18,766 nucleotides of DNA from Lingula anatina (lineage: Eukaryota; Animalia; Brachiopoda). Below, one piece after another: positions 1,722 through 18,259 of the stretch (positions within the stretch are counted from its first letter, which is position 1; each line of letters opens with the position of its first letter). The translations under genes and the position numbers were made by a program. The stretch is from contig CM120644.1 of assembly GCA_051362555.1 (NCBI GenBank), positions 14,263,268 to 14,282,033 on the forward strand. The letters are read 5' to 3'. The notes under the pieces were generated by a model. That model had not been told where the DNA came from and ran no database searches. It saw only the letters and a program-made list of their open reading frames with translations.

Positions 1722-1754
1722 CAGTTTTGTGCAGAGAAAGTGACATTACGGATA
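1722..1754 (+). repeat. Left terminal inverted repeat (33 bp)
   Basis: 33/33 match to the reverse complement of 17525-17557; preceded by TA. Confidence 0.96.
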
Positions 1755-2161: not shown

Positions 2162-2197
2162 GGCTGGCGATACGTCACGGTATTGTGGTCTATAATA
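2162..2197 (-). promoter_or_regulatory. Possible core promoter TATTATAGA ... ATCGCCAGCC facing the left TIR
   Basis: Minus strand TATAGA begins at 2194; the A of TCGCCAG is at 2165 (29 nt later). Confidence 0.35.
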
Positions 2198-3336
2198 GTG
2201 CAGGTCCAATTTCCCGCTCACTGTGATGCAACCCAGGCGTAACTTTGATTTAAGTTAGTGCTTTTACAAAAGTGGGACTAACTTTATGATTATGGCCATT
2301 CAACTGTATAACATGAGAACAAATATTTAGCCAAAAGAAAGTCAAATAACGCTTTCGTGTAAAAAAAAACGTGCTTGTCATCCTGGCTGTGAAGTTACGC
2401 CTTTTTATTTAAAGGGAGTGGGTGTATCCAGGCTGAAACAGACTCTCCTGTCTCAATGATCAAATGCCATTTAATTCGCAATGTGCGGATTTCTGAGGGC
2501 ACATTCTTAAGATTAGGTACAATGCCGACTTATGCACATAACACGAACATCTTATTCAGGTAAAGCGACGACAGGAGGGGCTGTGGTTATGCAAAGCGTG
2601 AAATGAGGCGTGATATACTTTAGTTCGATTGATTGTGGGCCAATAAAATAAAAAAGGTAATGTACCCTGCTCCGCTGTGACGAGGCCAATACTGTGCACT
2701 TTTTAGCTATCCGTTTAAGTACATGTCTCCTTGATCAAAACAAATTCAATACAGTGAAGAATAGAAAAGGCATTAAATTGACAAACACAAGTACCCTGTA
2801 CGATGTTCGAAATTTGGCCGATGAAGGCCGCTTTTATTGTGAATCCCTCTAATAAAGGAAGTAATTTTAGAGGCTAAAATTGAATAATTGTGACAGTGCC
2901 TAATTACGTAACTTTTACGTCTAAAAAAACTTTATTTTATATATAATTCCCAAACAACAGTGCAGACGTTCTAATTTGTGGGGTTGCAAAGAGGCCGAGA
3001 AGAAAAACTCCGAACAACGACCGGACGAAGCACCTCGGTGGAGTTTGAAATAAAGGATAAGCTAATTAGCAAATTGGTGGACGGCAGATAAGCTGCGGCG
3101 TGCTACCCAACCCTACTCCCTTTTTGAGGGAGGGGGGGGTACACTCTTTTCCTTACGATAAACAGGCCTTACAGCGAGGAGTAGAGCTCTCCATTCTGCC
3201 ATCCCTAGTTAGAGAAATTTAGATGTTGAAGAAATTTCAAATGTGCCCGCCCGGTCTTTTATGAATTAGATCGGCCAATACTTACCTAACTGATTTCCTG
3301 AAATAAAAGGTATTAATTAGGTAATCACAAATAACT

Positions 3337-3477
3337 GGTCCGCATGTCTTGCTAGACCGAAAAAGTAACACAATGGAATGAATGATAAACAAAAAAATGG
3401 GTAGAAGGAGAGAATCTGCATGTCTTGCTAGATCTCTGGGAAGATAGGAAATATGAGGTCCGCATGTCTTGCTGGAC
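3337..3477 (-). repeat. Three copies of an AGCAAGACATGC(A/G)GA motif downstream of the BEN stop codon
   Basis: Plus-strand GGTCCGCATGTCTTGCTAGAC (3337), GAGAGAATCTGCATGTCTTGCTAGATCTC (3408) and ATGAGGTCCGCATGTCTTGCTGGAC (3453). Confidence 0.9.
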
Positions 3478-3494
3478 TTCAAAAATACACTTTA

Positions 3495-4877
3495 CTAATT
3501 TTGGTTGCCCGCTCTTAAATTTCTATTTGCAGTGTTCATGGCAGAAACCATTTTTGCCCAAAAGTTCTTGTTTAGTCTCTGTTGCTCCGGATAGTAACGT
3601 CCAACAGCATTTCTTATATATTGAATTCTGTTCCTGTCCAACGGACTCCTAATGTCTCCCCCTCTCTTTGATCCTTCCACATTCTTTGTGGGGTCCGTTC
3701 TCTCCTCCCTGCTGAAGAGCTGCCCCATTAGCTTCACGCAAAAATTGGTCGCCCCCGTAGAATTTTGTTTTAGGATAAGGAGCTCGTTCTCAGTGGGGAA
3801 TAACGTACGGGTCTGGGGAGGGTGGCCTTGAGAACGAGCCGGGGCAGGGGCAGGGGCAGGGGCAGGGACTGGGTATGGGTAGTGTGGAGGGAAAGGGAAG
3901 GGGGCATGGGGGTGTGCTCCTTGTATGTCAAAAAATGGGGGCTGGGGATATGCAGGGAAAGGTGGTGGGCTAGGAAAAGCAGGGGGAGGTGGGGGAGATG
4001 GGAGGGGGCTGTCTAAATTCAAACGGGATACAGGGGGCGGTGTCCCATAGTCGGTGGCTGCGGAAGGGGGGATCAGTCTGGTGGTGGTGGCAGGAGGGGT
4101 CGGTCTGGCGGTGGATGTGGTAGAGGGGGTCGGTCTGGAGGTGGAGGTGGTGGCCTGGAGAGACGGTCTAGTGGCGGTGGCGGCGGCAGGGGGGGGTGGT
4201 CTGGTGGCGGGGAAGATGGCAGGAGGGTTTGATCTGGTGGATGTGGTGGCAGGGGGGGTCGGTCTGGCGGTGGATGTGGTGGCAGGGGGGGTCGATTTGG
4301 CGGTGGATGTGGTGGCAGGGGGGGTCGGCCTGGAGGTGGATGTGGTGGCAGGGGGGGTCGGTCTGGCGGTGGATGTGGTGGCAGGGGGGGTTGGTCTGGC
4401 GGTGGATGTGGTGGCAGGGGGGGTCGGTCTGGCGGTGGATGTGGTGGCAGGGGGGGTCGGCCTGGAGGTGGATGTGGTGGCAGGGGGGGTCGATTTGGCG
4501 GTGGATGTGGTGGCAGGGGGGGTTGGTCTGGCGGTGGATGTGGTGGCAAGGGGGGTTGGTCTGGCGGTGGATGTGGTGGCAGGGGGGGTTGGTCTGGCGG
4601 TGGATGTTGTGGCAGGGGGTGGTGGTCTGGAGATGGAGGTGGTGGCAGGGGGGGTGCTGGGGGTGGAGGTGGTGGCAGGGGGGCTGCTGGGGGTGGTAGG
4701 GGGGGCTCCCAAAATTTGGTGAAGCAACTCTTCATGTCGCAGGAGTTTCTCGAATATCTTATCAATGGAATCTTGAAGTTTCACCAGAGCCGGTCTGCAC
4801 TCACACCGCAGAGGTGGGGGAAGCTGGGGTGTATTGTCATGTCCACCGGCTGGGCCAGATGAAATGCGAGTTGCCTG
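3495..4877 (-). CDS. Terminal exon of the BEN-domain gene (coiled coil, Pro/Thr repeats, BEN domain at about 3510-3790)
   Basis: Long open frame in the ORF track, entered through a TTTGCAG/CAG (NAGNAG) acceptor at 4880-4875; stop TAA at 3497-3495. Confidence 0.88.
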   Translation of the reverse strand, partial: QATRISSGPAGGHDNTPQLPPPLRCECRPALVKLQDSIDKIFEKLLRHEELLHQILGAPPTTPSSPPATTSTPSTPPATTSISRPPPPATTSTARPTPPATTSTARPTPLATTSTARPTPPATTSTAKSTPPATTSTSRPTPPATTSTARPTPPATTSTARPTPPATTSTARPTPPATTSTSRPTPPATTSTAKSTPPATTSTARPTPPATTSTRSNPPAIFPATRPPPPAAATATRPSLQATTSTSRPTPSTTSTARPTPPATTTRLIPPSAATDYGTPPPVSRLNLDSPLPSPPPPPAFPSPPPFPAYPQPPFFDIQGAHPHAPFPFPPHYPYPVPAPAPAPAPARSQGHPPQTRTLFPTENELLILKQNSTGATNFCVKLMGQLFSREERTDPTKNVEGSKRGGDIRSPLDRNRIQYIRNAVGRYYPEQQRLNKNFWAKMVSAMNTANRNLRAGNQN

Positions 4878-5343
4878 CTGCAAATTAGAAACATTTATTT
4901 AATGTTTTTTATTTGAACTCGTTTTTAAATATGGACATGGAAACAAAACTGCAGCTATGACGCAACCCCATTTGTCGTTTCATGTTCAAGGACACATTTT
5001 TACCTCAATACTGAATTAATCTCGACATTTTTAATCATACCCTCCGTTACTTATAAATATTTCAAGCTGGTGTCATAGACTCGTTGTTCTTGTGTAAGAT
5101 TCTCTTTAGTACTCACCTTTCGGCCCACTGCCTTCTTTTTAGTTTTTTGTTTCTTTGGTGGTCTTTCCCCCTCTTCTTCACCAGTTTGATCCTGAAAGAA
5201 CCCAAGCCGTAAACAGCAGTATTATTATTATTATTATTATTATTATCATTATTATTATTATTATACAGAACGAGAAAAAGTGAACAACTGCAATTGTGCA
5301 GCCTCTTAGGTAAAAATCACATATAATATATACTTGTATATAC

Positions 5344-5377
<34 letters not shown>

Positions 5378-8300
5378 GAAATCAAATTAGACGGCCCTCA
5401 CCTGTCGTCTCACTTGCTTCTTTCGCCTCACTTCCTTCGTCACCTCCGTCTCCGCCCTCACCTCCTCCTCGTCAGTTTGATTCTGAAAAACGACAATTAA
5501 ATAAATAAATGAACAAATGAATTTGTCTCTCTTTCCGTTTTATGTATGTACGAAGACAGTTCGCTAAATTAAACTTGAAAAAATAACGAATTAACTGTGA
5601 TGGGCATTAGAATGTTTTCAGTTGTCGTGTATAGCTTTTCAATAAGCTGACCATTTCTTTCTTTTTCTTTTCTATTTTGCTGTGGTAAATTGATGTCGTG
5701 TGCACGATTTTTGTCAGTGCACGGTGCTCACCTGCTCTTCCTCCACCTCCCCTTCCTCCTCCTCTGAGCTTCCAGAACTGTCAGTTTCATTGGCATAAAA
5801 CCTTTCCATTGCCATGTGTTCTGACACGGAATCTGAAAGAGGACAAAAAGAACATGGCTGGTTGTAAGTCAGGCACGTCGGCGGGTGGGGGAGGCGTTCG
5901 TCTGGTAAATTTGATAATGGTACAAAAAGGTTTCATGATGAAGGGTCCGCTTTTCAGAAAAAGAACCTTACTTTGAAATTGCTGAGAAATGTCAACGTGT
6001 GCATACGGGACAACTCGTGAAGCGACGTACAATATGAAATTAACATGTTATTCGTACAGTTTTTGGGCATCATGAACCCTTGTTAATTTCTTTAATTATT
6101 TATATTGATAGTTATCGTGGTATGGTTTTCTTGTCAGTGAGTCAGCACGCAGTACAGACTAATGGTGACTTACTTGTTGTGTGAAGAACCATTCCTTCGA
6201 CCTCCCCCAGATCCTTCCACTGGACCCTTACTCGTACACCCTGTACGATTTTCTCATCGGCCGTCAGTTCGATCGTCTTCAGGCCGGACACTGTATTATC
6301 CTGCCATCGAACGACAGCGAAGGTATCTGGAAAGAATTAAGGGTATGCGAGATTAGAAAAACATACTCATAAATGATTATAAATTTAACTCTAACTTGGC
6401 AAAATATGATTGTGTTCCGGTATTCTACAGACGCATCGCCCAATATTATAAGCGACTAACGAAAATGAATCTAGTGATGCTAAATGTAAATGGGATTGGG
6501 GGGGGGGGGGGGGGGGGTCCGCGGATGCGAAGTGTTTTAGAGGGCGAGTAACAGTAAATGTATGCAACTTTTTGTGTCGATAAAATTACATAATTTTTAT
6601 TTCCTTTTTTTCTATAATTTTTTTATCAAACCATTCTCAAAATCAATACCAACAGAGACTACCAGGATGCCCAGTCAATCCTTAGGCCTACCCTCGCCAG
6701 CAGTTATGCACGCGATTCTTAGTTATGTACGGCATTTTTTTCAAACAACTTGTTTTTCTAGCTCCGCTGACTTTAATATTGCCAAAGAAGGAAAAAATAT
6801 ATATAAAATTGAAACCAAAAATAATTTGTTTTTTTTCACCGACGTCCGACTGATCATACTCTTCAATCGGAATAACATAAACGCGAAAACTCCTAGTAAG
6901 TTTAACGGCACTCTCACGTCACATGACTGCCTACAAGTTAAACGAAGGCCATTTGTACCAAGGTAAACGCTTGGTTCATTTCCTCGAGCTTCCGGTTTTT
7001 AAGCCAATCAGTACTTCGTTGATATTTTACATTACACGTACGACTACATGTGGTATTAATGCAAAATGGCGGGAAAGTGTGCTGGAGTAGCCGTCTTGAC
7101 TTAAGCAGGAATTTCACCTCTGTTGTGTGGCTCACTTTATAGTGAAGGAGGGACCAAAATTATTATGCAAAATGGTCTGTCCGACCAGTGTTACAGATGT
7201 TTTAGGCAATTTTACTCACTGCTTTCTGTCGGAAATGAACATCAACTGCACAACTTGCGTCACGTGTGGAGTGTTTCAAAGGGGGAACAGCAGAGTAAAG
7301 AGCACAAAGCATGTTTGTTTATTATTATTTTGTAATTTACAAGAATGATTCGTAGAATTGACATTTATTTTGACAAATAAAATAATAAAAAGAAATTGCT
7401 GTTTTTGTTTCTCTGTTTTAGTTCTTACTATTGTCTAATGTTAAAAGTCATGATTTTGAAAAATGTCTTTCATTTTTCACCCCCTCCGACCTCCAAAAAA
7501 ATATTGTTTAACAAACAATAAATTAAATAAAAACTGCCCAACACTCGCTGTATAGTGTGGGTGATGTATTGTCACCATTGCATGGCTGTTGCTCACTAGT
7601 TTTTTCTGAATCTGGAAGCATGTGCCACCAGATTCGCCTGATGGACATGCCACCAGACTGGCGATCTTGTGAGAAGCAGCGCTTTATATAGGTTTGGGAC
7701 TGACCTTTGACCTGATGTACAATGTAACTCTCATTGGGTAGTGCGAATGACGCAATGTCTAGAAAGCATTGCATGGTGTCTGGTGAGTGGATTGTAACTA
7801 AGTCTTCTTGCTTTCCTTTTTTTTTTCATGTGACGGAATATGTACCCCCAGAAAATGTTGAAGAGCATATGGATCACTTATACATTTACAGGTATACTAT
7901 GTCCTCGCTTTTATGTAACTTAGCGACTGCACTGAGGATAATTTGTTGATTGGTGGTTATTATCGCTAGAACTTAGAAGTATTTAAACAAGAATCAGTTT
8001 TAACATCAACTTGAATTTTAAGTGTTCCTCTCGAGTTAACGCTGTTGCTTGACTACTCCCACAGGCTTTAAGTGTGAATTTCACTGTAACAGTACCTTTG
8101 TTAAACGCAAAAATTACAGGCCGTTCATAATTGGGGGGGGGGGATGGGGGGGGGGGAGCAACCTTCCGCATGCAATTTGTTAATTGATACAGTCATGCAT
8201 ATTTGATTTTATTGCTTTTACTTATGCAATATGTTTAATTAGTATATTATTTATCTTTGTTTTTTTACACCAATTAACATAAGTTTAAAAAATGTTTTAC

Positions 8301-10923
8301 ACATTTTCTTTTGACAGCCTGTTGACATTGTCCTGCCATCTCAGGGAAGACGCAGTAGTGGACGTTCTGGCGAACCTTTATTAGACTTAGAGTCACCTTG
8401 GGGCAGTCCCCCATAACAATTGTGCTTCTTGGGCTTGGCAATCTCATTCAGTTTTGTAGGAGAGGATGATTTGCACCAGTGGATTGACAAGTATTGACAA
8501 TCGACATTTCAGTCACACTAAACTACTGGCATGTTGTACCACACTTATTCTAAGATTGCTGAATTATCATTACTGTCTTAGGAGACCCTAGATCTCTCAA
8601 CCAGAAGAAGAGATACAGCTGTAAATTAGTTATAAGAGAAAACAACCCACTGTTGTGTATTTGGAAAAGATAACCTTGATTAGGCTTGATATTGGAGCTT
8701 GGGCTTGGAGATTCATAACTTGCTTTCACTCCTTTGAAAAGTAACTGCTTTGTTCTTTGTTCCTTTACTGTTGATAATATGATAATAAACACTCCTCTTG
8801 TCATTGTATGTTGCTGACTCTGTTTTAATTATCTTTTAAGAAAGAGAATATAGATATCAAGATTTCACATGTAGGCCTATTTACAAAGCCTTTGAATCAT
8901 TTGAACGCTAAAAGAATGGTTGAGAAATGCAATATATTAACTAGATTATGACATTAGGATGTGATGCAAATACAGTCCAGACAAGGGGCAAAGGAAGTCA
9001 GTACATGTATGGTGTACAGTACCGGACACTAAAGAGGTGTTAATAGTAATCCGTAATTATGCCGTTTCTGTAGCACATCCCACCCTCCTCGATGTTATCT
9101 TGCTAACTACATGTAGACAATAGGCGATCCTATTTAGCGAAGTTTAATTTTATGACTCGTGTTATTTTTATCCGTATAAACAACGAATGACTGTTGAACA
9201 GTTCAAGAATTTTTCAGTATTTTTCCTGCTATTACTGAGAAGAAAAAACAAAATTGTGAATCGAGTTAACAAGAAACCACGGCCGAATCCCGGGGTTAAG
9301 GGACGCGGAAGCAAAGCCGACCCCCCCCCCCCCCCACTCCCTACTGGGCGTTGGGTAAAAAAAAAAAAAGGGCGAACGGTGCCATTTGGTACGGTTAAGA
9401 ACTATGATTCAGCTAGTCTTAATTCCAACAACAGGGGACCAGAAATCTGAATGTCCGACCAAGCAAGTGTAAACATGTCGGTGTGGGACGATTTGGGGTT
9501 ATGCTTAGGCCTATATACCGTACAAATGTACAAGTTAACTTTGTAACTTTTGGTGTTTATAAAATAACATTATTCTTTATACTTACTTCACTTACTAATA
9601 CTTATATTATTTATCAAACTTTTCCTAATATCAAAACGGCAGAAACTACAATGATGTCCATTTACCCTCGCCTGCAGTTCTAAACGCGATTTTTCATTTA
9701 AAAATTGTGTAACGTCATTGAACAGTGCAAATGATGCAATGTCACCTGTGCATGGTAGGTAGTTACTGGATTATACTGAGTCTGTTGGTCCAGACAACAG
9801 ACTCGCCTGTTGGGCTGGACCAACAGACTGGCGAAAAAAGTTAATCCACCGCCTTTTATAGACCCCGGGTTCAAGTGTCCATGAACTTGGCCCATTGTGA
9901 GGCTCTTAATATCGGTGTTGTTTACTTTTCATTTTTAACCAGGAAGCAAAGATTGACTTCACGTTTTTTTTCTGTCTACCTTTATTTGAAGGAATATTTA
10001 ACCTTAGAAAATGTTGAAACGCAAATGGAGTGCTTATACATTTACAGGTATACTATGTTTAGGCCTATATATTTCTGCACATAATTTGTTAATTGGTGGT
10101 TATTATCACTAGGGAATCTCCAAACATGAATCAGTTTAAATTCCTATCAAGCTGAATTAAATTGAAAGTGTTTCTTTCAAGTTAACGCTGTCCCTGGTTC
10201 ATATCTTGTTCTGCTCCTTGACTACTGTCAGAGGCTTAAGGCGTGAATATCACTGTAACACTACCTTTGTTTAACGCACAATTACAGCACAGACATTATC
10301 GGTGGTTGGCTTATGGTGTACAATAGCCTACTAAAGAGGTGTTAATAGTAATCCGTAATTATGCCGTTTCTGTAGCACATCCCACCCTTCTCAATTTTAG
10401 TTTGCTATCTAGTCGATACCCTAAATACTTAGAGAAGTCTAACTTTATGAGTTTTTTTTACCGGTATAAGCAACGTCCGATCATGTGTAATGAACTTACA
10501 GATCACACCAGCAGCATAACAGTGTAAATTTTAACGGAACCTTATTTCTGTAATGTTTGAGTTAATTGGTGGTGGGCAGAGTCTTTTTATTCAATGATGA
10601 TGATAATAACTGTAGAAGTAGTGCTACTTTTAGTCGCACAAAAGCACATTCCTTAATTCTGTGATCTATTTTAGGATTAAGTTCTCGTATGTAAGCCAGA
10701 GCTGTGTTAAGTTATAAGAATGATGTGATTTTTTTCTTCAGGCAACAGCTAATATTGAGAAGATGTCCTGATAGACATCGTAATATTGGAGGTAAAACCT
10801 ATATCAAATATAAGCTGTTGTCTGAAGAAAAAAAATCACATCATTCTTAGGTTCTCGTATAGACCTATTTATTAACTGTACTACCGTTTACTTACCAACT
10901 TTGGACAGCTGGCGAGCAGACAT
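3495..10923 (-). CDS. BEN-domain protein (transposon cargo); predicted exons 10923-10896, 6326-6174, 5832-5732, 5482-5402, 5191-5117, 4877-3495 (about 606 aa)
   Basis: GT-AG exons join in frame: MSARQLSKVD/TFAVVRWQDNTVSG...VRVRVQWKDLGEVEGMVLHTTN/SVSEH...SSEEEEGEVEEEQ/NQTDEEEV...RRKKQVRRQ/DQTGEEEGERPPKKQKTKKKAVGRK/QATR... The C terminus (NFCVKLMGQLFSREE...NVEG...PLDRNRIQYIRNAV...FWAKMVSAMNTANR) fits the BEN-domain pattern. Exons 2-6 are well supported; exon 1 (ATG 10923, GTAAGT donor, matching phase 1) is less certain. Confidence 0.75.
4080..4680 (-). repeat. Coding 33-bp minisatellite (11-aa unit ARPTPPATTST), about 11 well-conserved copies at about 4240-4620 plus degenerate flanking copies
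   Basis: Plus-strand unit GGTCTGGCGGTGGATGTGGTGGCAGGGGGGGTC repeated head to tail with no spacers. Confidence 0.95.
5220..5264. repeat. (TAT)n microsatellite, intronic
   Basis: Directly visible. Confidence 0.95.
5347..5376. repeat. (TA)15 microsatellite, intronic
   Basis: Directly visible. Confidence 0.95.
7609..7659 (-). ncRNA. Candidate 51-nt hairpin RNA, copy A
   Basis: AGTCTGGTGGCATGTCCATCAG-GCGAAT-CTGGTGGCACATGCTTCCAGATT folds by hand into an approximately 22-bp stem (G-U pairs allowed, one mismatch, one bulge) starting at the predicted +1. Confidence 0.45.
7656..7690 (-). promoter_or_regulatory. Core promoter TATATAAA ... GATCGCCAGTC (hairpin unit A)
   Basis: Minus strand reads TATATAAAGCGCTGCTTCTCACAAGATCGCCAGTC; the predicted +1 A is at 7659, 31 nt from the first T. 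Confidence 0.6.
9779..9829 (-). ncRNA. Candidate 51-nt hairpin RNA, copy B
   Basis: AGTCTGTTGGTCCAG-CC-CAACAG-GCGAGT-CTGTTG-T-CTGGACCAACAGACT: a perfect 15-bp stem plus a 6-bp stem, starting at the predicted +1. Confidence 0.5.
9826..9860 (-). promoter_or_regulatory. Core promoter TATAAAA ... TCGCCAGTC (hairpin unit B)
   Basis: Minus strand reads TATAAAAGGCGGTGGATTAACTTTTTTCGCCAGTC; the predicted +1 A is at 9829, 31 nt from the first T. Confidence 0.6.
10715..10849. mobile_element. MITE-like palindrome (arms about 36 bp, TA at both ends)
   Basis: TAAGAATGATGTGATTTTTTTCTTCAGGCAACAGCT pairs with AGCTGTTGTCTGAAGAAAAAAAATCACATCATTCTTA. Confidence 0.65.
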
Positions 10924-11139
10924 CTCCGTGCTATAGATTTCCTCTAGGGATGATAAATTCACTAATGTCAGGTGTTGGTCTCGTATCGGCAGTTGCTGAT
11001 GCTGAGAAAGTACACTGTAAGTGTAAGCTAGTCTGTCCATCATCCCCCATTATATAATCTGCCGCAGGGAGCGTGATTGAAATCAAACTTGGCACATCTT
11101 GACAGTTTAAGTCGGACAAAAGATCTTCAGGTGATACTT

Positions 11140-12130
11140 TTAATTAGAGCTGCCATGTAAGCTAACAGTTTAATTAATGCAACGTACAGGTAAATTGAGA
11201 GTACCGATAAGATCAACTTCTTCCTATCTCTCCATCAGCGTATTTCTTCAGACTGCCTTTATTTTCGACCACTGTTTAACAAGGATAATTATCAATAGAA
11301 TAACATTGTATGGAGAAAGGATTTTTTATTCATTATTTTATTCACGAAAGAATAAGCAAACTGCTCGTTTCAGCAGAAAGATGGGAATATAAAACCATTA
11401 AGTTAAAATAAAGTTCTCAGAAAACTGCTTGCTTAAATCATTCCTTCAAGATACACGTGAACTAAATCTAGATTAAATAAGTTGTATGAATAATGTCATA
11501 AAATAATAATTGCTATATGAATATATGCCAGAAATGTCACTAATTGCGATAAATGAAATACATGTATTCTGATATAAATGCGAAAAAAAAAAAAAAAAAA
11601 AAAAAAGAAAAGAAAAAACAAAAGAAACATCCGCCGGCAGTAATAGGTGCTGGTGACAGCCCGTATCGTATGTATAACTTGAAAGAACAAGCTTACATGC
11701 ACCAAACAAAGCACAATTTAAAAAAAAAAATTGTAAAATATTTTTGGTAATGAAAGCCGGCCAGATTCCATGAAAACATTATATAACCATGCTGGCAGAA
11801 AAATGCAATAAAAACAGATTTGCAAGGTCAGCAAGTAGATGTAGTTATCGATAAAGGTTACATCTGACATAAATGAATTGCAGGAAAAAATGATAAAAAT
11901 TTTCACCACAATCAAAATAAGCCGTAAAGCCAAAATATCACATGAGGACAAAATTACAAGTAAATCGTGGCACTTCTTGACATCTTAAGTCGAACAAAAG
12001 ATTTTGGTCACACGTTTAATCAGAGCTTACCTGCATGGTAAGTTAGATTAATAACTCCAACGTACAGGTAGATTGAGATTTTCGATAAGATCACCCTCCC
12101 ATTTCTCCATCTCCGCATTTCTATAGACCG
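11140..12130. repeat. Diverged direct repeat of about 120 bp (about 11140-11255 and 12015-12130) in the intergenic region
   Basis: Both contain TTAAT.AGAGCT...CAACGTACAGGTA.ATTGAGA...CGATAAGATCA.C...TCTCCATC..CG.ATTTCT...AGAC. Confidence 0.8.
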
Positions 12131-12924
12131 TCCGATAAGATCTAAAGGGCCCTGGCACGTAGATTACACGCAATTACTACAATCGTTGATTATCTTCCTT
12201 AAATGCTTGCTTAAGCTCCGATCATACATTCTTTCGAGTCCATGTTCTTAGAAAATCCTTTTAAAATCCTTTCTACAAGCAGCTATAAAATAAAAACGCC
12301 TGTGCATTTTCTGATCGTTGTGCATTTCAAAATTTCCCAAACCAAAAACATATTAATTGGACAATGTTTGAATGTCTGTGACAAAGTGACAACTTAGGGA
12401 CAGAACATCCGAGAAGGCGTTTTGTTTATTGACTTAGATAGTAGGATGACTGGTTTTGTAGTCTATGATCATTGTGTGGATACATATAAATAATTGTGAT
12501 GGTATAATTATTTTGCCTGCAAGTACCTTCAGTTAAGGAAAATCCTAATCCTTAACTATGCTGTATTTCAATGGCTTAATACAAAAGCATTTTTTATGTG
12601 CTCGCTTCCGAACTGTTTTAAAGGTGTGGTTCATAAGTAAGACATTAATGTTACCAAAGATAACAGGTAAATTCAAATGAAGGTCTTCAAACTAATATGT
12701 AGAATCGTTTAATCCAGTTGCCGTTAGGATATTTTCTAACGAAATTGTAATGACGATAAGTGGGCGTTGATATTCGTCAGAAACCAGATGAGATCGGTGA
12801 TAAGAGATGGTGTGATTAGATAATGGGCGCGTGTTAAATGTTTAAGTCGTTTTAAGAATGGCTGTGGTCGCGAGTTTTTCGCTCCTTCATTACTGCTGGT
12901 GAAGCCATGGAACACGAGGTACTG

Positions 12925-12958
12925 TATAAAAACGCGGAAGGCAGCAGGATCGCCAGTC
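12925..12958 (+). promoter_or_regulatory. Transposase core promoter: TATAAAAA plus initiator-like GATCGCCAGTC
   Basis: TATA starts at 12925; the A of CAGT is at 12955 (30 nt later); the ATG in AAGATGC context is at 12976. Confidence 0.7.
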
Positions 12959-12975
12959 ACTGCCTATTCAACAAG

Positions 12976-15128
12976 ATGCCGTTCAACGAGTATGCTCGCC
13001 AGCGCGCCCTGAAGCTGCGAGAGGCTGGACTTGGTATAACAGCCATCAGGAGACAACTACGAGAGGAAGACGTCACCTGTTCACTAAGCTCGATATACAG
13101 GTAAGTGATTGGGACAGATCTTGCCCTTAGTGGAGCTATGTGTATTTACTCCGGTTTTAGCAAATAAAACTATATCATGAGTGACAGTGAATCTCCTGCT
13201 CTCTTCTTCAATCTCTCTTTTTTTCACCAAGGAACTCCAGACTTATAGTTTTTTTATAGAAATAAACGGATTATATGTAGATTTTCCCTTAAACCGCATA
13301 TTTCTTTTTGTACTAGCTCATTTTCTTTTTGGTCAAACGTTTTCTTTTAATACAACGACGCGTTTACAGAGCACTCTATCCCAATATTGTTTATTCTACA
13401 TGTATACATTGAACTGACAGAATTCGTATCTTTTCTAGGTTTTTTGTAAAACACAATGAAGGGTTTGGCCTTGCTGACCGGCCTAAACCAGGGAAACAGA
13501 CAACATTTACAGATGAGCACAGGGCCATCGTTGATGAAGAGATGGAGGCCAACCCTGAGCTCAGATCACATGAGCTTCGGGATATCCTGAGGGAACGTAC
13601 AGGTAATAATTATGTATTGATACCATTAAAATATTACCGTGGCGACCATCGCGCATCAAACGAAGGAAATGTTAGGAAATCTACTCCTCATTGAGCTAAA
13701 CAAGAGAAAGCACTTGGCACATAGTGGTTAACATACACCGTAATTTGTCAAATTGATTTTTTCATACAGTGAAGAAATAATAAATTATTGACTGAATGTT
13801 CATATAAATACCGCTCTTTTTCGTTCGTTTTAACAGGTCTGCTGGTGTCGTCCAGCGCTGTGCGGAGATTCAGGAAGAAGGTTGGCTGGGTGAAAAGTGC
13901 GAAGGGCTACTGCCAGCTTGTTAGAATTGTGAACCGTCCGAAAAGAGTGAACTGGTGCCGCGAGGCCCTGGCAGTAGAGGACAAGTTTGAGGACGTTGTG
14001 TTTTCTGGTAAGCAACAACCCACAGATCTTCATTAAAAAACCAACATGTACATGTATTGTTGTTTAAGATCTATTACCGGGTATTCCGCTCACTTTGTAA
14101 TCTACATGTATATATATTAGCACCGTTGTTAAAAAGGTACACAAAAATTCTTTCTTTTCTTGAATTTGCCTTTTGAGTTTCAAAATGTGTCTTATTTATC
14201 TTATTTGCGCATTCACTTCAGATGAGTGTACCGTGGAGATGGACACGAATGGTCGATACATTTTTCGGAAAGTTATCAGGGATGAAGACGGCAACGACAT
14301 TAGTCCGCCCCGCCCACTGCGCAGCAAACCGAAGCACCCCTACAAGGTCCATGTATGGGCAGGTGAGACGCTACAGTGAAATGTTTAATACTGTTGTGAT
14401 AAAAAGGGGTTATCTTTGCTTGTTGAAATGTAATGAATCAAAATTTAACAAGTGTAATTTAACACTCCGGGTCTGAAAACTAATTAGCCAAGATTGTGAC
14501 TAGGCTTTTAAAATAAAAGTGCATGTTCATGTAAACTAATGGACTGATATTATCTATTTCAGGCATTTCGCAAAGAGGCGCAACTCCCATCGTGACGTTT
14601 ACTGGCGCCATGAACAGCGAGGCTTACCAGGACATTCTTCGGGACACTCTGATTCCGTTTCTTCAAGAAAGGTAAGCGGAAATCAGCAATTAAAATAATT
14701 AAAGAGTCAGTATCGATTTAGAGTATGCATTGCCAATGTTTGTCCATCAGCTGAAAGTTCTGAAAATAGTAACACTTACGTATCTCTTCTGATTTAACCA
14801 CAGGCTTCCTCTGGGGCACAGGTTCCAGCAGGACAATGCGCCCATGCATACCAGCAGGTCGACGGCCACGTTCTTCGAGCAGCACAACATCAACTGGTTT
14901 AAGACGCCCCCCGAGAGCCCTGATCTGAACCCCATCGAGATGCTTTGGGCTGAGCTGAAGTATTTCATCAGGAACCGGGCGAAACCAAGAACGAAAGATC
15001 AACTGGTGGCTGCAATTGAGGAATTCTGGACAACCGTGGATCAGGCTAAGTGTATTAAGTATATAAACCACATTCAGAAAGTAATGCCCGAAGTAATTCG
15101 TGTCGAAGGCAGAGCCACAGGTTATTAA
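12976..15128 (+). CDS. Tc1-like DD34E transposase, 6 coding exons: 12976-13100, 13439-13602, 13837-14007, 14222-14362, 14563-14671, 14804-15128 (1035 nt, 344 aa)
   Basis: All five introns are GT-AG with compatible phases and no internal stop. The spliced protein has an HTH-like N terminus (ALKLREAGLGITAIRRQL...SLSSIYR), a DRPKPGK linker (GRPR-like), a second HTH (SSSAVRR), VVFSDE (first D), KHPYKVHVWAGIS, FQQDNAPMH (second D) and PPESPDLNPIEMLW (E), with 34 residues between the second D and E. Confidence 0.93.
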
Positions 15129-15262
15129 GTTACTGCCGTGTCTGTCCAGGTATTTTTAGGCTTTGACTTTGTAAATATGTACAATATTGTTTATGTGTTA
15201 TTTTTATGTAAATAGCTGTAGATTTTTTATAGATTATTTATATTTATTCTTTCATGTTGAAG

Positions 15263-15470
15263 GCCAGCAAGGCATGCGGCCCTCATTCCCCCCTTTTTTC
15301 CCGGAGATCTAGCAAGACATGCAGATTCTCTCCCACCCATTTCTTTTTATTTTAAAATGTTTTCCTTTCAATTGTCGTTACTTGTTGGGTCCAGCAAGAC
15401 ATGCGGACCTCATACCCACCCCCCCCCCCCCCTCGGAGATCTAGCAAGACATGCAGATTCTCTCCCACCC
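15263..15470 (+). repeat. Four copies (A-B-A-B) of the same AGCAAGACATGC motif downstream of the transposase stop codon
   Basis: CCAGCAAGGCATGCGGCCCTCAT (15264), GGAGATCTAGCAAGACATGCAGATTCTCTCCCACCC (15303 and 15435), GTCCAGCAAGACATGCGGACCTCAT (15389). Confidence 0.9.
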
Positions 15471-15680
15471 GTTTCGAACATCATACTTGTGTTTGTCACT
15501 TTATCGTTTCTTTTTTCGGCATCGTATTGAACTTTTCGATTAAGGAGACATAAAGATTATTTATATTTATTTTCTTTGTATATACTTTACTCTGTATTTA
15601 TTTTTATACACCAACATTGTATATATGTTATGTTTCATTTACATGTAAATATGTTTCGAATCATTATTTTATTTTACATT

Positions 15681-15720: not shown

Positions 15721-16904
15721 GTGTAGTTTACAGTTTACAGCTTTACAATAAGGGGGACGATTGAATAGATCTACTCTCCTGTCGCGCCATCACCAGATTC
15801 TGTAATGGAAAGCGCTGCTGCATTTTTCGCAGGTTCGACGTCATTTTCATAACAGCATCCGGTGATGGGACGTCATAAGTGCAGATCTGTTCAAACTCTT
15901 TCTTACTGGTTGGGCATGTATAGATAGTGTATATATTTATCATATGTATGAAATTTTTAATTCAAATTTTTAATTTATAGAGCAGCGCTTAATTCCACTT
16001 TTTCGTGGCAGTGCCTTGGCTATTAGACGGACATGTCTCTGGCTTGGCCTGACTACAGGAACGTGAGTGTTGTTTTTAAATATGCAGATATGGGTAATCT
16101 CATAAAATTCCGCACCACCGGTGCATTCGGGGTATTGTGAAATTACCGTGACCCATTAACACTTAATCACCCTCTGCAGTGTGTCAGAAGGCATGTAATA
16201 CAACTGTAAGGTGAACGGCTATCTATTTCGATGTACAGTTTATAATGTTAAATTCTTAATCTGTAACTCTTATTATTAGCATATAGCCGTTTGTGTTATC
16301 AATCAGGCTCTGCAAAGGTTCTGCAACCTGAGGGTTCCTTCTGATCTGTGTTCTAAACCTATTATTGTTCCCCTGCAGTTATGACAAGTTATTTGCACAA
16401 AGAAATCTAACCTATCATTCCGTAATTTGACGTACGAGTCCATGTATTTTATTGTCGTCGTCTTAAAGTCCAATTGAGTAGTCCGCGCAGCTTCATAATT
16501 AAAAAAAAAAAGAATAACGTGTTTGGATAGATAACCCGGTCCCTGTTGTTCCTCATGATCTAAAAATAATGTTAAAAGGTTAGGGCAAAGCCAGGTTAAA
16601 CTGCAATGAATTATATGTTAAAAATTTATAATAGTGTGAGCATTTCAATGTAATAATTTGAGCTGAAATTGACACCTAGGAAAAACGTAAAATACGCCGT
16701 CTTATTTAGGTTATGTTTCCTTTATTTTCAACATTCAGAATCAACAACACATTGGGATTTTAAAATTTACAACACAATTTACAGCAAAAAAATGTAACTA
16801 TGTGCGCAGCAAAAATGCCTGTTGAAACAATTTTAGGAGTGACATTAAATTGTAACCGAGCCTTGAGAACCAAGACATCGTGAAGAAAGAAAATGCTATC
16901 TTAA

Positions 16905-17220
16905 ACCTAGGTTCCAACTACGTTTTTGACGCACGGTTTTTAGGTTCATTGCGTCCGTCTGGGACGTAGCTAAATCGCAGGGAAGGAATCAAGTAAAGCC
17001 TAGGTTGGGCTGCTTTGTGTGGTCTACGGCCAAAAGATGGGAAAACGTGGGAGTTCGTGCGTGAGGAATACGTCCATCGTGCGACTTTTGGAGGACACAA
17101 ACAGCACGTAGGAACTTTTTGACATGATCCAAAGCCGCTACGTGCGATCTTGCTACGTCCTAACCGGACGCAAGGAACCTAAAAACCGTGCGTGAAAAAC
17201 GTAGTTGTGGGGCCTAGGCT
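16905..17220. mobile_element. Nested MITE with about 65-70-bp TIRs, flanked by TTAA (Kolobok- or piggyBac-type target)
   Basis: CCTAGG...CAACTACGTTTTTGACGCACGGTTTTTAGGTTCATTGCGTCCGTCTGGGACGTAGC pairs with GCTACGTCCTAACCGGACGCAAGGAACCTAAAAACCGTGCGTGAAAAACGTAGTTG...CCTAGG; TTAA at 16901-16904 and 17221-17224. Confidence 0.8.
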
Positions 17221-17524
17221 TTAAATACTATCTGAAGGACGAACACGATGAAAGCGTGCCACATATAGATGAACAATGATTGTGTGCAGTCGGGCAGATA
17301 ATCAGATAAACGGCTGGGACTTGGGGGATGACAATTAAAGCTGTCACTCAGCAGCATCAGTAGTGGGAGAGGTGGTAATTAAGGCTGTCACTCATCACCT
17401 CAAACGAGGCAAACTCAACTTATTTCCCTAAACCCAGCTGACTTACTCTAAGCATTGTGTCCTATTGTGTTTACCCTGTAATTATGTGCAATTTGCGGTA
17501 CGTAAGATTAGGGTGGTTTATCCG

Positions 17525-17557
17525 TATCCGTAATGTCACTTTCTCTGCACAAAACTG
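17525..17557 (-). repeat. Right terminal inverted repeat (33 bp)
   Basis: TATCCGTAATGTCACTTTCTCTGCACAAAACTG followed by TA. Confidence 0.96.
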
Positions 17558-18010
17558 TAGTCACTATCCTGGATCTAATAACAAAATAATATAAACCTAT
17601 ATAAACCTGGCAGAAATTATGATAATAACCCGGATCTTTTCAGTGGGGGGAAATTGTGAATTTTACAGATACTTTCATTTTTTAAGTCTTAAATTGCTTA
17701 AAATTAGAACATTCCTTTTAAGTGGTAGAACGTACAAAATTAAAAGCAGGCTACTAAAGGAAAAGCACCACTTTAATGCAATATAGAAATATAATTTTGT
17801 GTTTATAAAATTTTTTATCTGAAAGTTTGATTAATTTTTCCCTTTGAAGTACCATAGAACATTGAAAATAAAAGGTGAAAAAATGGGGGGGGGCATATTT
17901 TGTAAGTATACCATCTATTTCTTTTTTTTTTTATATAAATATTAATTTATCCATTTCCCTGGCTGTTATTATTTGATTTGACCTTTTAAATTTTTTTTTT
18001 TACAGCTGAA

Positions 18011-18259
18011 ATGTGTGGAATTTGGGCAATTTTTGGCAGCGATGACGATGTGTCAAGGCAGTGCAGCAGCTGCCTGAAAATCGCTCATCGTGGTCCTGAT
18101 GCTTTCCGCATTGAAAATGTCAACCACTTCAAGAACTGCTGCCTCGCCTTTCATCGTCTGGCCATCGTGGACGACATTTATGGTATGCAGCCAATGAGGG
18201 TCCACGCTTTACCTCACTTATGGATGATCTATAATGGAGAGATTTATAACTGCAAACTG
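18011..18259 (+). CDS. ASNS: Asparagine synthetase (glutamine-hydrolysing), first coding exon (83 aa); gene continues beyond the window
   Basis: MCGIWAIFG...AHRGPDAFR...FHRLAIVD...GMQPM...YNGEIYN is the Ntn/class II glutamine amidotransferase N terminus of animal ASNS. Acceptor TTTTACAG at 18005 and donor GTGAG at 18260. Confidence 0.96.

Follow-up and report, generated by a model that had tools for sequence, protein, structure and literature searches.

Paired hairpins at predicted start sites of a BEN-carrying Tc1-type transposon in Lingula anatina, and their seed matches to the genes that it carries

We analyzed a stretch of 18,766 nucleotides (nt) from the brachiopod Lingula anatina (GenBank assembly GCA_051362555.1, contig CM120644.1, positions 14,263,268 to 14,282,033 of the forward strand), which we call the window and within which all coordinates are counted. 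The window holds a Tc1-type (DD34E) transposon of 15,836 bp that carries a transposase gene and a BEN-domain gene and encloses four sites with a TATA box followed by TCGCCAG, here named L, A, B and T. A stable RNA hairpin begins exactly on the predicted +1 A at both site A and site B. As far as the sequence goes, the real interest of the element is this pair of start-site hairpins, whose stems differ by compensatory changes and whose 3' arms have reciprocal seed matches to the two element genes, a feature that an earlier note on this DNA had overlooked. We tentatively propose that promoters A and B yield RNAs resembling capped microRNA precursors (pre-miRNAs), and that the 3' arms of these RNAs would repress the element's BEN and transposase mRNAs.

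Start-site hairpins and their seed matches

No other 53-nt single hairpin on either strand of the whole window is as stable as hairpins A and B, and none of 200 shuffles was as stable as either. Their first bases are 7659 and 9829, the predicted +1 positions. When the two are aligned in structural register, 20 of 22 pair positions are paired in both paralogues: 11 are identical, seven have changed on both sides with all seven still paired, and two have changed on one side with pairing kept. The other two are mismatched in one paralogue. The loop with its closing bases, CAG-GCGARU-CUG, is kept in both hairpins. Hairpin A also folds better on the predicted transcript strand than on the other (-31.0 versus -22.7), where it uses G-U pairs. 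Both hairpins fold below -20 kcal/mol and are longer than 50 nt (51 nt plus overhang), as in two of the filters applied to capped pre-miRNAs. The hairpins have probably been selected as RNA.

Three other origins were rejected. A Drosha-type reading fails because longer folds bring no common lower stem, a U6-type RNA polymerase III (Pol III) reading because no T-run follows the hairpins, and a reading of units A and B as high-copy MITEs (miniature transposable elements with inverted repeats) because their DNA-read depth is 54 and 40, versus thousands in neighbouring repeats. Both units recur in a DNA run of another study, with 6 and 15 letters different (98-99% identity). Rfam gave nine sub-threshold matches in the window, none of them on the hairpins.

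The predicted 3' arms (3p) of both hairpins start at a homologous U, one base past the loop-closing pair; this start assumes that Dicer cuts beside the loop. In this register, the Pro/Thr repeat that BEN encodes offers 14 8-mer sites to the 3p seed of hairpin A and the transposase offers it none; to that of hairpin B, the transposase offers one 8-mer and one 7-mer site and BEN none. Only 5 of 16,384 seeds have at least ten 8-mers in BEN; 48 of 16,384 do as well as hairpin B in the transposase, where 2.3% of seeds meet any 8-mer at all. Dinucleotide shuffling of both arms, with five registers and 20,000 trials, returned the observed pattern 20 times, reciprocal 8-mers 205 times and any two 8-mers 392 times. 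The joint chance of the seed pattern is 0.1-2%, depending on the leniency of the null. Cognate and non-cognate targets could not be told apart by the duplex energies of the whole arms (-20 to -23 kcal/mol), and the match is thus confined to the seeds.

Capped pre-miRNAs are described as arising by RNA polymerase II (Pol II) initiation and early termination, with Drosha bypassed and the 3p arm alone loaded, and a start common to such a precursor and an mRNA is described as giving one or the other but not both (PMC6009592). In the mechanism that we hypothesize, Pol II would start at the A of CCAG and, at unit A, would either elongate into the BEN mRNA or stop near +53. The short capped hairpin RNA would bypass Drosha, Dicer would cut it beside the loop and the 3p arm would be loaded. 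A-3p would then act on the 14 sites in the BEN coding repeat; repeated miRNA sites in coding sequence can work (PMC3613578, citing Schnall-Levin 2011). Unit B would be a duplicate with a re-tuned seed, acting on the two transposase sites, and the outcome would be a DNA transposon that negatively regulates itself through its own small RNAs. A Dicer product with self-targeting is a possibility that we put forward with reserve. The fullest version, a two-microRNA governor in an animal Tc1-type element with the BEN protein closing the loop by binding TCGCCWG at three promoters, seems unlikely.

Candidate promoters and the genes of the element

TATA-N18-28-TCGCCAG has four matches in the window (2164-2194, 7658-7690 and 9828-9860 on the minus strand and 12925-12956 on the plus strand), against an expectation of 0.03, and a count of four was reached in none of 200 shuffles. 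The earlier note had given the sequences and coordinates of these sites exactly, and the canonical distance between TATA box and initiator (Inr) that it reported, 29-31 nt, is borne out by our measurements from TATA-T to A (29 nt at L, 31 at A, 31 at B and 30 at T). It had also called the spacers unrelated; they share 3-9 of 19 letters across sites (9 of 19 between T and A). The flanks of five site pairs show no similarity (z at most 1.8). Sites A and B lie inside duplicated blocks (7562-8119 versus 9732-10287, ~70% identical), and their flanks align with z of 13.5 and 11.5. Because A and B are paralogous, the independent sites number three rather than four. Flank alignments gave no signal of common descent among the T, L and A/B promoters. 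With the duplicate removed and three sites left, none of 300 shuffles placed any GC-rich 7-mer thrice at such a spacing from a TATA box (25 of 300 had two, the most seen), under a null that is post hoc and allows any GC-rich 7-mer.

The sequence evidence makes it likely that the four sites are Pol II core promoters of one transposon. Site T is likely the transposase promoter and site A likely the BEN promoter, and we are fairly confident that T, A and B are real promoters. The promoter reading of the earlier note is indirectly strengthened by the predicted +1 just ahead of the transposase ATG, by the coincidence of hairpin base and predicted +1 at A and B, by the distance from +1 to a GTGACA donor (84 nt in units A and B alike) and by the BEN frame that unit A opens. 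Site L is the weakest, with a poor TATA (TATAGA) and CAGC in place of CAGT, and the sequence downstream of it shows no structure (fold z +0.84). The proposal of a co-regulated set of four transcripts was overstated: two sites are a duplicate pair, L has no identifiable product, no RNA starts were seen, and the motif does not recur in the related loci described below. TCGCCAG is not exclusive to TATA boxes: the window has eight copies versus 0.89 expected, of which four lie at TATA distance and four are without TATA.

Two further motifs were seen near the promoters. A bipartite box, CCATGCA..GACAWTRCRTCA on the minus strand, has three copies (7562-7585, 7748-7775 and 9732-9754) and is kept just downstream of both hairpins; its TGATGCAAT half presumably resembles a C/EBP-ATF stress element. 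The palindrome TCGCGA, a BANP-like core, occurs as a single copy at 12868-12873, ~55 nt upstream of the transposase TATA.

The excess of TCGCC-type motifs also fits a reading that the earlier note raised and that is compatible with the hairpins, namely that TCGCCWG, which overlaps every start site and recurs in inverted form in the hairpin loop and in the intron, is the DNA site of the element's own BEN protein, which would co-regulate the promoters. TCGCCWG occurs 11 times versus 1.74 expected (7 without TATA and in either orientation; 10 of 11 at 6694-13002). TCGCCAG, a 7-mer that was picked post hoc, is more enriched than any other 7-mer with a CpG once the element is de-duplicated (rank 8 of 5,735 overall; 7 copies versus 0.65), and TCGCC is kept at three homologous places in A and B (initiator, loop (inverted) and intron). 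A five-sequence BEN profile lies nearest two solved CpG readers, BEND3 (E 5e-12) and BANP (E 1e-5), and the R of ...AMNTANRN falls opposite the first R in the CRR of BEND3. This R would occupy the position of the CpG-reading Arg316 of BANP, as judged from alpha5 spacing (PMC11472053), and another R, three residues later, may be the NACC-type site. BEN cargo is found in the relatives L013, L018 and, weakly, L037 as well, yet these BEN-carrying relatives are without TATA-TCGCCAG. Moreover, TCGCCWG is not among the BEN sites named in the available text of PMC8887127 (ACATGY, CCCACG and CGCG), and a competing candidate, CAAGACATGC, has six copies in the 3' flanks and contains the NACC-type ACATGY (PMC8887127). 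We consider TCGCCWG a plausible but doubtful candidate for the BEN site.

The BEN gene lies on the minus strand and is transcribed divergently from the transposase. When predicted exon A is put in front of the BEN exons, the frame runs to 621 or 612 amino acids (aa), depending on the start ATG; the unit A donor is weak, and no spliced read across it was seen. The 612-aa form has 17 residues before an aligned aromatic residue, versus 16 in its Lingula relative (where it is the 17th residue). This nearest BEN relative, a Lingula protein (XP_013418091) with 54% identity over the BEN region, was the single match of one homologue search; another search returned 22 representatives, without genomic context. 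The exon at 6326-6174 is 55% identical across 49 aa of Lingula P0121. A first BEN exon ending near 6840 was rejected because that stretch mostly behaves as a high-copy repeat.

The element is bounded by perfect terminal inverted repeats (TIRs) of 33 bp with TA at either end, as the Tc1 criterion has it. Its transposase has five predicted GT-AG introns, and the joined exons form an open frame with 34 residues counted between the second D and the E of the DDE triad. An N-terminal helix-turn-helix (HTH) is suggested by an HTH_32 match under the cut-off (E 5.5e-4, one exon scanned). The 3' flanks of the transposase and BEN genes are homologous in two stretches, the one in Table 1 and 2723-2803 versus 15474-15551 (79% and 74%), and with their six CAAGACATGC copies they resemble a common 3' cassette or relic inner inverted repeats.

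Table 1. Features of the element in window coordinates; exons are predicted.
Feature	Position	Strand	Remarks
Site L	2162..2194	-	TATAGA..TCGCCAG toward left TIR; no open reading frame (ORF) or hairpin; AATAAA at +45
Site A	7656..7690	-	TATATAAAG..TCGCCAGTC
Site B	9826..9860	-	TATAAAAG..TCGCCAGTC; paralogue of site A
Site T	12925..12958	+	TATAAAAA..TCGCCAGTC; predicted +1 at 12955, 21 nt before ATG 12976
Hairpin A	7609..7659	-	51 nt from predicted +1 A; loop GCGAAU; -31.5 kcal/mol, z -6.0
Hairpin B	9779..9829	-	51 nt from predicted +1 A; loop GCGAGU; -34.8 kcal/mol, z -6.8
TGCCACCA 8-mer sites (n = 14)	4085..4677	-	in BEN coding repeat; pair with predicted 3p seed of hairpin A
7-mer-m8 site, predicted hairpin B 3p seed	13051..13057	+	transposase exon 1
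8-mer site (9-nt match), predicted hairpin B 3p seed	13498..13505	+	transposase exon 2
Left TIR	1722..1754	+	starts CAGT, TA at 1720-1721; 35/35 letters including TA are the reverse complement of 17525-17559
Right TIR	17525..17557	-	TA adjoining
Transposase	12976..15128	+	344 aa, stop-free, DD34E; DDE_3 E 2.7e-13
Transposase exons (n = 6)	12976-13100, 13439-13602, 13837-14007, 14222-14362, 14563-14671, 14804-15128	+	predicted
Transposase 3' flank	15257..15475	+	three CAAGACATGC repeats; homologous to BEN 3' flank
BEN unit A exon 1	7576..7659	-	predicted, 84 nt; two ATGs (7648, 7621) share the frame of the BEN exons
Unit B exon 1	9746..9829	-	predicted, 84 nt; no ATG in BEN frame
BEN internal exons	6326-6174, 5832-5732, 5482-5402, 5191-5117	-	predicted, AG/GT bounded
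BEN last exon	3495..4877	-	open frame with BEN domain (PF10523, E 5.7e-6, passes cut-off) and 33-nt tandem repeat (Pro/Thr)
BEN gene 3' flank	3337..3482	-	three CAAGACATGC repeats; 79% like transposase 3' flank

Other parts of the window were recorded in passing. Further non-coding internal duplications lie at 11090-11253, 11968-12128 and 12826-12849, at 9008-9185/10312-10475 and at 1824-1884/2494-2554. The stretches 6857-7343, 10715-10849 and 16901-17224 are likely nested repeats or MITEs, as judged from high read depth at the first two and long inverted arms at the last two. A host exon at 18005-18259 (GATase_6, E 5e-6) lies ~450 nt right of the element and belongs to what we take to be an asparagine-synthetase-like gene; the element may sit in or near the 5' region of that gene.

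Evidence against self-targeting and rival explanations

Several observations weigh against the proposal that the hairpins give self-targeting small RNAs, beginning with the read data. Three mRNA-seq runs from three studies, of which ~6, 6 and 25% were read, were mapped to 4800-15600 of the window, and none showed starts piled at 7659, 9829 or 12955; this is a weak test because such libraries cannot keep a 53-nt RNA. RNA depth was 0-0.5 over hairpin B and at most 0.11 over the BEN exons at 4800-5882. Furthermore, one DNA contig (run X5, depth 56.9) passes from 12932 to 12972; this contig, which omits 12933-12971 and with it the transposase TCGCCAG, is likely a decayed copy. The hairpins themselves raise other points. 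Hairpin B folds equally well antisense (-35.4), the covariation rests on two hairpin sequences, and five of the seven double changes are adjacent and possibly one template-switch event. Paralogous miRNAs usually do not differ in the seed while keeping the loop and stem base, as these hairpins do. We found no 3'-end signal at +53, and each stem has 21 pairs versus the >22-bp filter of PMC6009592; for this reason we hold that the hairpins likely act in the manner of capped pre-miRNAs but do not count them in that class. The seed test was chosen after the match was noticed, and its result is sensitive to register: a shift of one base 3' leaves A without any 7- or 8-mer and B with one 7-mer. Finally, related elements do not share the arrangement. 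Five motif patterns, TATA-TCGCCAG among them, each had 0 matches in 80 related transposase loci (the best 80 of 515 in metagenome contigs, 411,193 nt), and a TATA-plus-hairpin scan of 7,350 starts returned A, B and two weak unrelated matches, with none comparable in the relatives.

Elsewhere in the element, RNA depth reached 1.3 over the transposase, mainly mRNA-sense if the libraries are stranded. Most mapped RNA reads fit partially and look repeat-derived, and no spliced read crossed a transposase joint among the joints displayed. The element is nearly silent in these three RNA samples.

The related loci are mostly intronless transposases with ~40-45% identity over the full length. Among the 20 loci examined for ends, TIRs lie 4.5-9 kb apart in L013, L018, L037, L027 and L004/L005. 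A TATA-free hairpin scan of five TIR-bounded relatives found repeat arrays and isolated stems and nothing like A or B, and a search for the hairpin pattern matched neither metagenome nor viral contigs. BEN ORFs stand above the cut-off in L013 and L018 and below it in L037 (41 of the 102 listed ORFs were scanned, those left out mostly overlapping transposases), which suggests that BEN cargo is a habit of this clade. In L013 (3545-3720), and also in L011 and L014, an array with TCTCGCGAGA, which we take to resemble a BANP site, lies between convergent transposase and BEN genes.

The hairpins could instead act in cis on the full transcript, either as a protein-binding pause control like HIV TAR or as a cap-proximal stem that buries the BEN AUGs. 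Such a role would suit a loop (GCGARU) and stem base that are kept while the mid-stem varies and yet pairs, and in unit A the stem takes in the two AUGs that are in frame. The 5' hairpin of HIV TAR likewise gives a 3p small RNA, via non-processive transcription (PMC4872094). However, exon B has no in-frame AUG, the element encodes no RNA-binding partner (BEN domains bind DNA), and a cis role does not account for the match of the two arms to one element gene each. We think such a role improbable.

Least probable, in our judgment, is a neutral origin, in which ordinary host-type TATA-Inr (CAGT) promoters were copied by internal duplication, the hairpins are neutral template-switch palindromes and the seed matches are coincidence. 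The ingredients are at hand: CAGT 25-30 nt past a TATA is the usual invertebrate and viral-early initiator (PMC1550435), internal duplications abound in the element, and each hairpin is a duplicated palindrome whose arm chimeras fold into two short hairpins. The near-silence of the element in the three RNA runs and the most lenient seed null, at 2%, fit as well. A neutral origin is hard to square, however, with two hairpins that both span exactly 51 nt from the predicted +1 and have kept pairing despite ~30% unit divergence, with the preference of hairpin A for the transcript strand, or with a TCGC common to the unrelated transposase promoter.

Comparison with known systems

The TATA-Inr motif by itself is of modest interest, as an ordinary promoter arrangement. 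In the CAGT/TCAKTY type of initiator (PMC1550435), a TATA likewise stands ~30 nt before the A(+1) of CAGT, as at three of our four sites; the element's initiator differs from TCAKTY in its fixed TCGC extension and in having C instead of T at -2. Even without a miRNA step, the analysis shows large Tc1-type elements with BEN cargo in several animal contigs. TLEWI elements, which are Tc1-like and intron-bearing elements of bivalves, have a transposase in 3-6 exons and thus share its split form (10.1101/656579). Membership in TLEWI was rejected, since these are described in the available text as DD36E and without TIRs or target-site duplications (TSDs), whereas the element is DD34E with perfect TIRs, TA and BEN cargo (10.1101/656579).

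If the self-targeting reading is true, a start-site hairpin pair tuned one per element gene would be a new form of transposon self-control, and capped pre-miRNAs would reach into invertebrate mobile DNA. A literature search that covered few subscription journals found no BEN-carrying Tc1 elements, no TCGCCAG initiator and no self-targeting start-site hairpins in a DNA transposon. For Tc1/mariner elements, the controls given in the available text of PMC6719617 comprise a suboptimal transposase, overproduction inhibition and TIRs that are imperfect, with no element-encoded small RNA listed.

Among known small RNAs, the 7-methylguanosine (m7G)-capped pre-miRNAs, or transcription-start-site miRNAs (TSS-miRNAs; miR-320, miR-344, miR-484), likewise have a hairpin of >50 nt and < -20 kcal/mol at a Pol II start (PMC6009592). 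They can share that start with an mRNA and have the 3p arm as product, as predicted for the hairpins of the element. Those described in the available text of PMC6009592 are mammalian and lie outside DNA transposons, whereas the stems of the element have 21 pairs and are known from sequence alone. The closest architecture is that of HIV-1 TAR, in which a mobile element's Pol II 5' hairpin gives a 3p small RNA when transcription is non-processive (PMC4872094); there the element is a retrovirus with Tat, and here it is a DNA transposon with duplicated hairpins and no known RNA-binding partner. Rice miR820, which resides in CACTA transposons, is likewise a miRNA gene borne by a DNA transposon (PMC3459959; PMC6719617), and it was the single such gene that our literature search met. 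However, miR820 is a plant miRNA that targets a host methyltransferase in an anti-silencing role (PMC3459959), whereas the predicted targets of the Lingula hairpins are the element's own genes.

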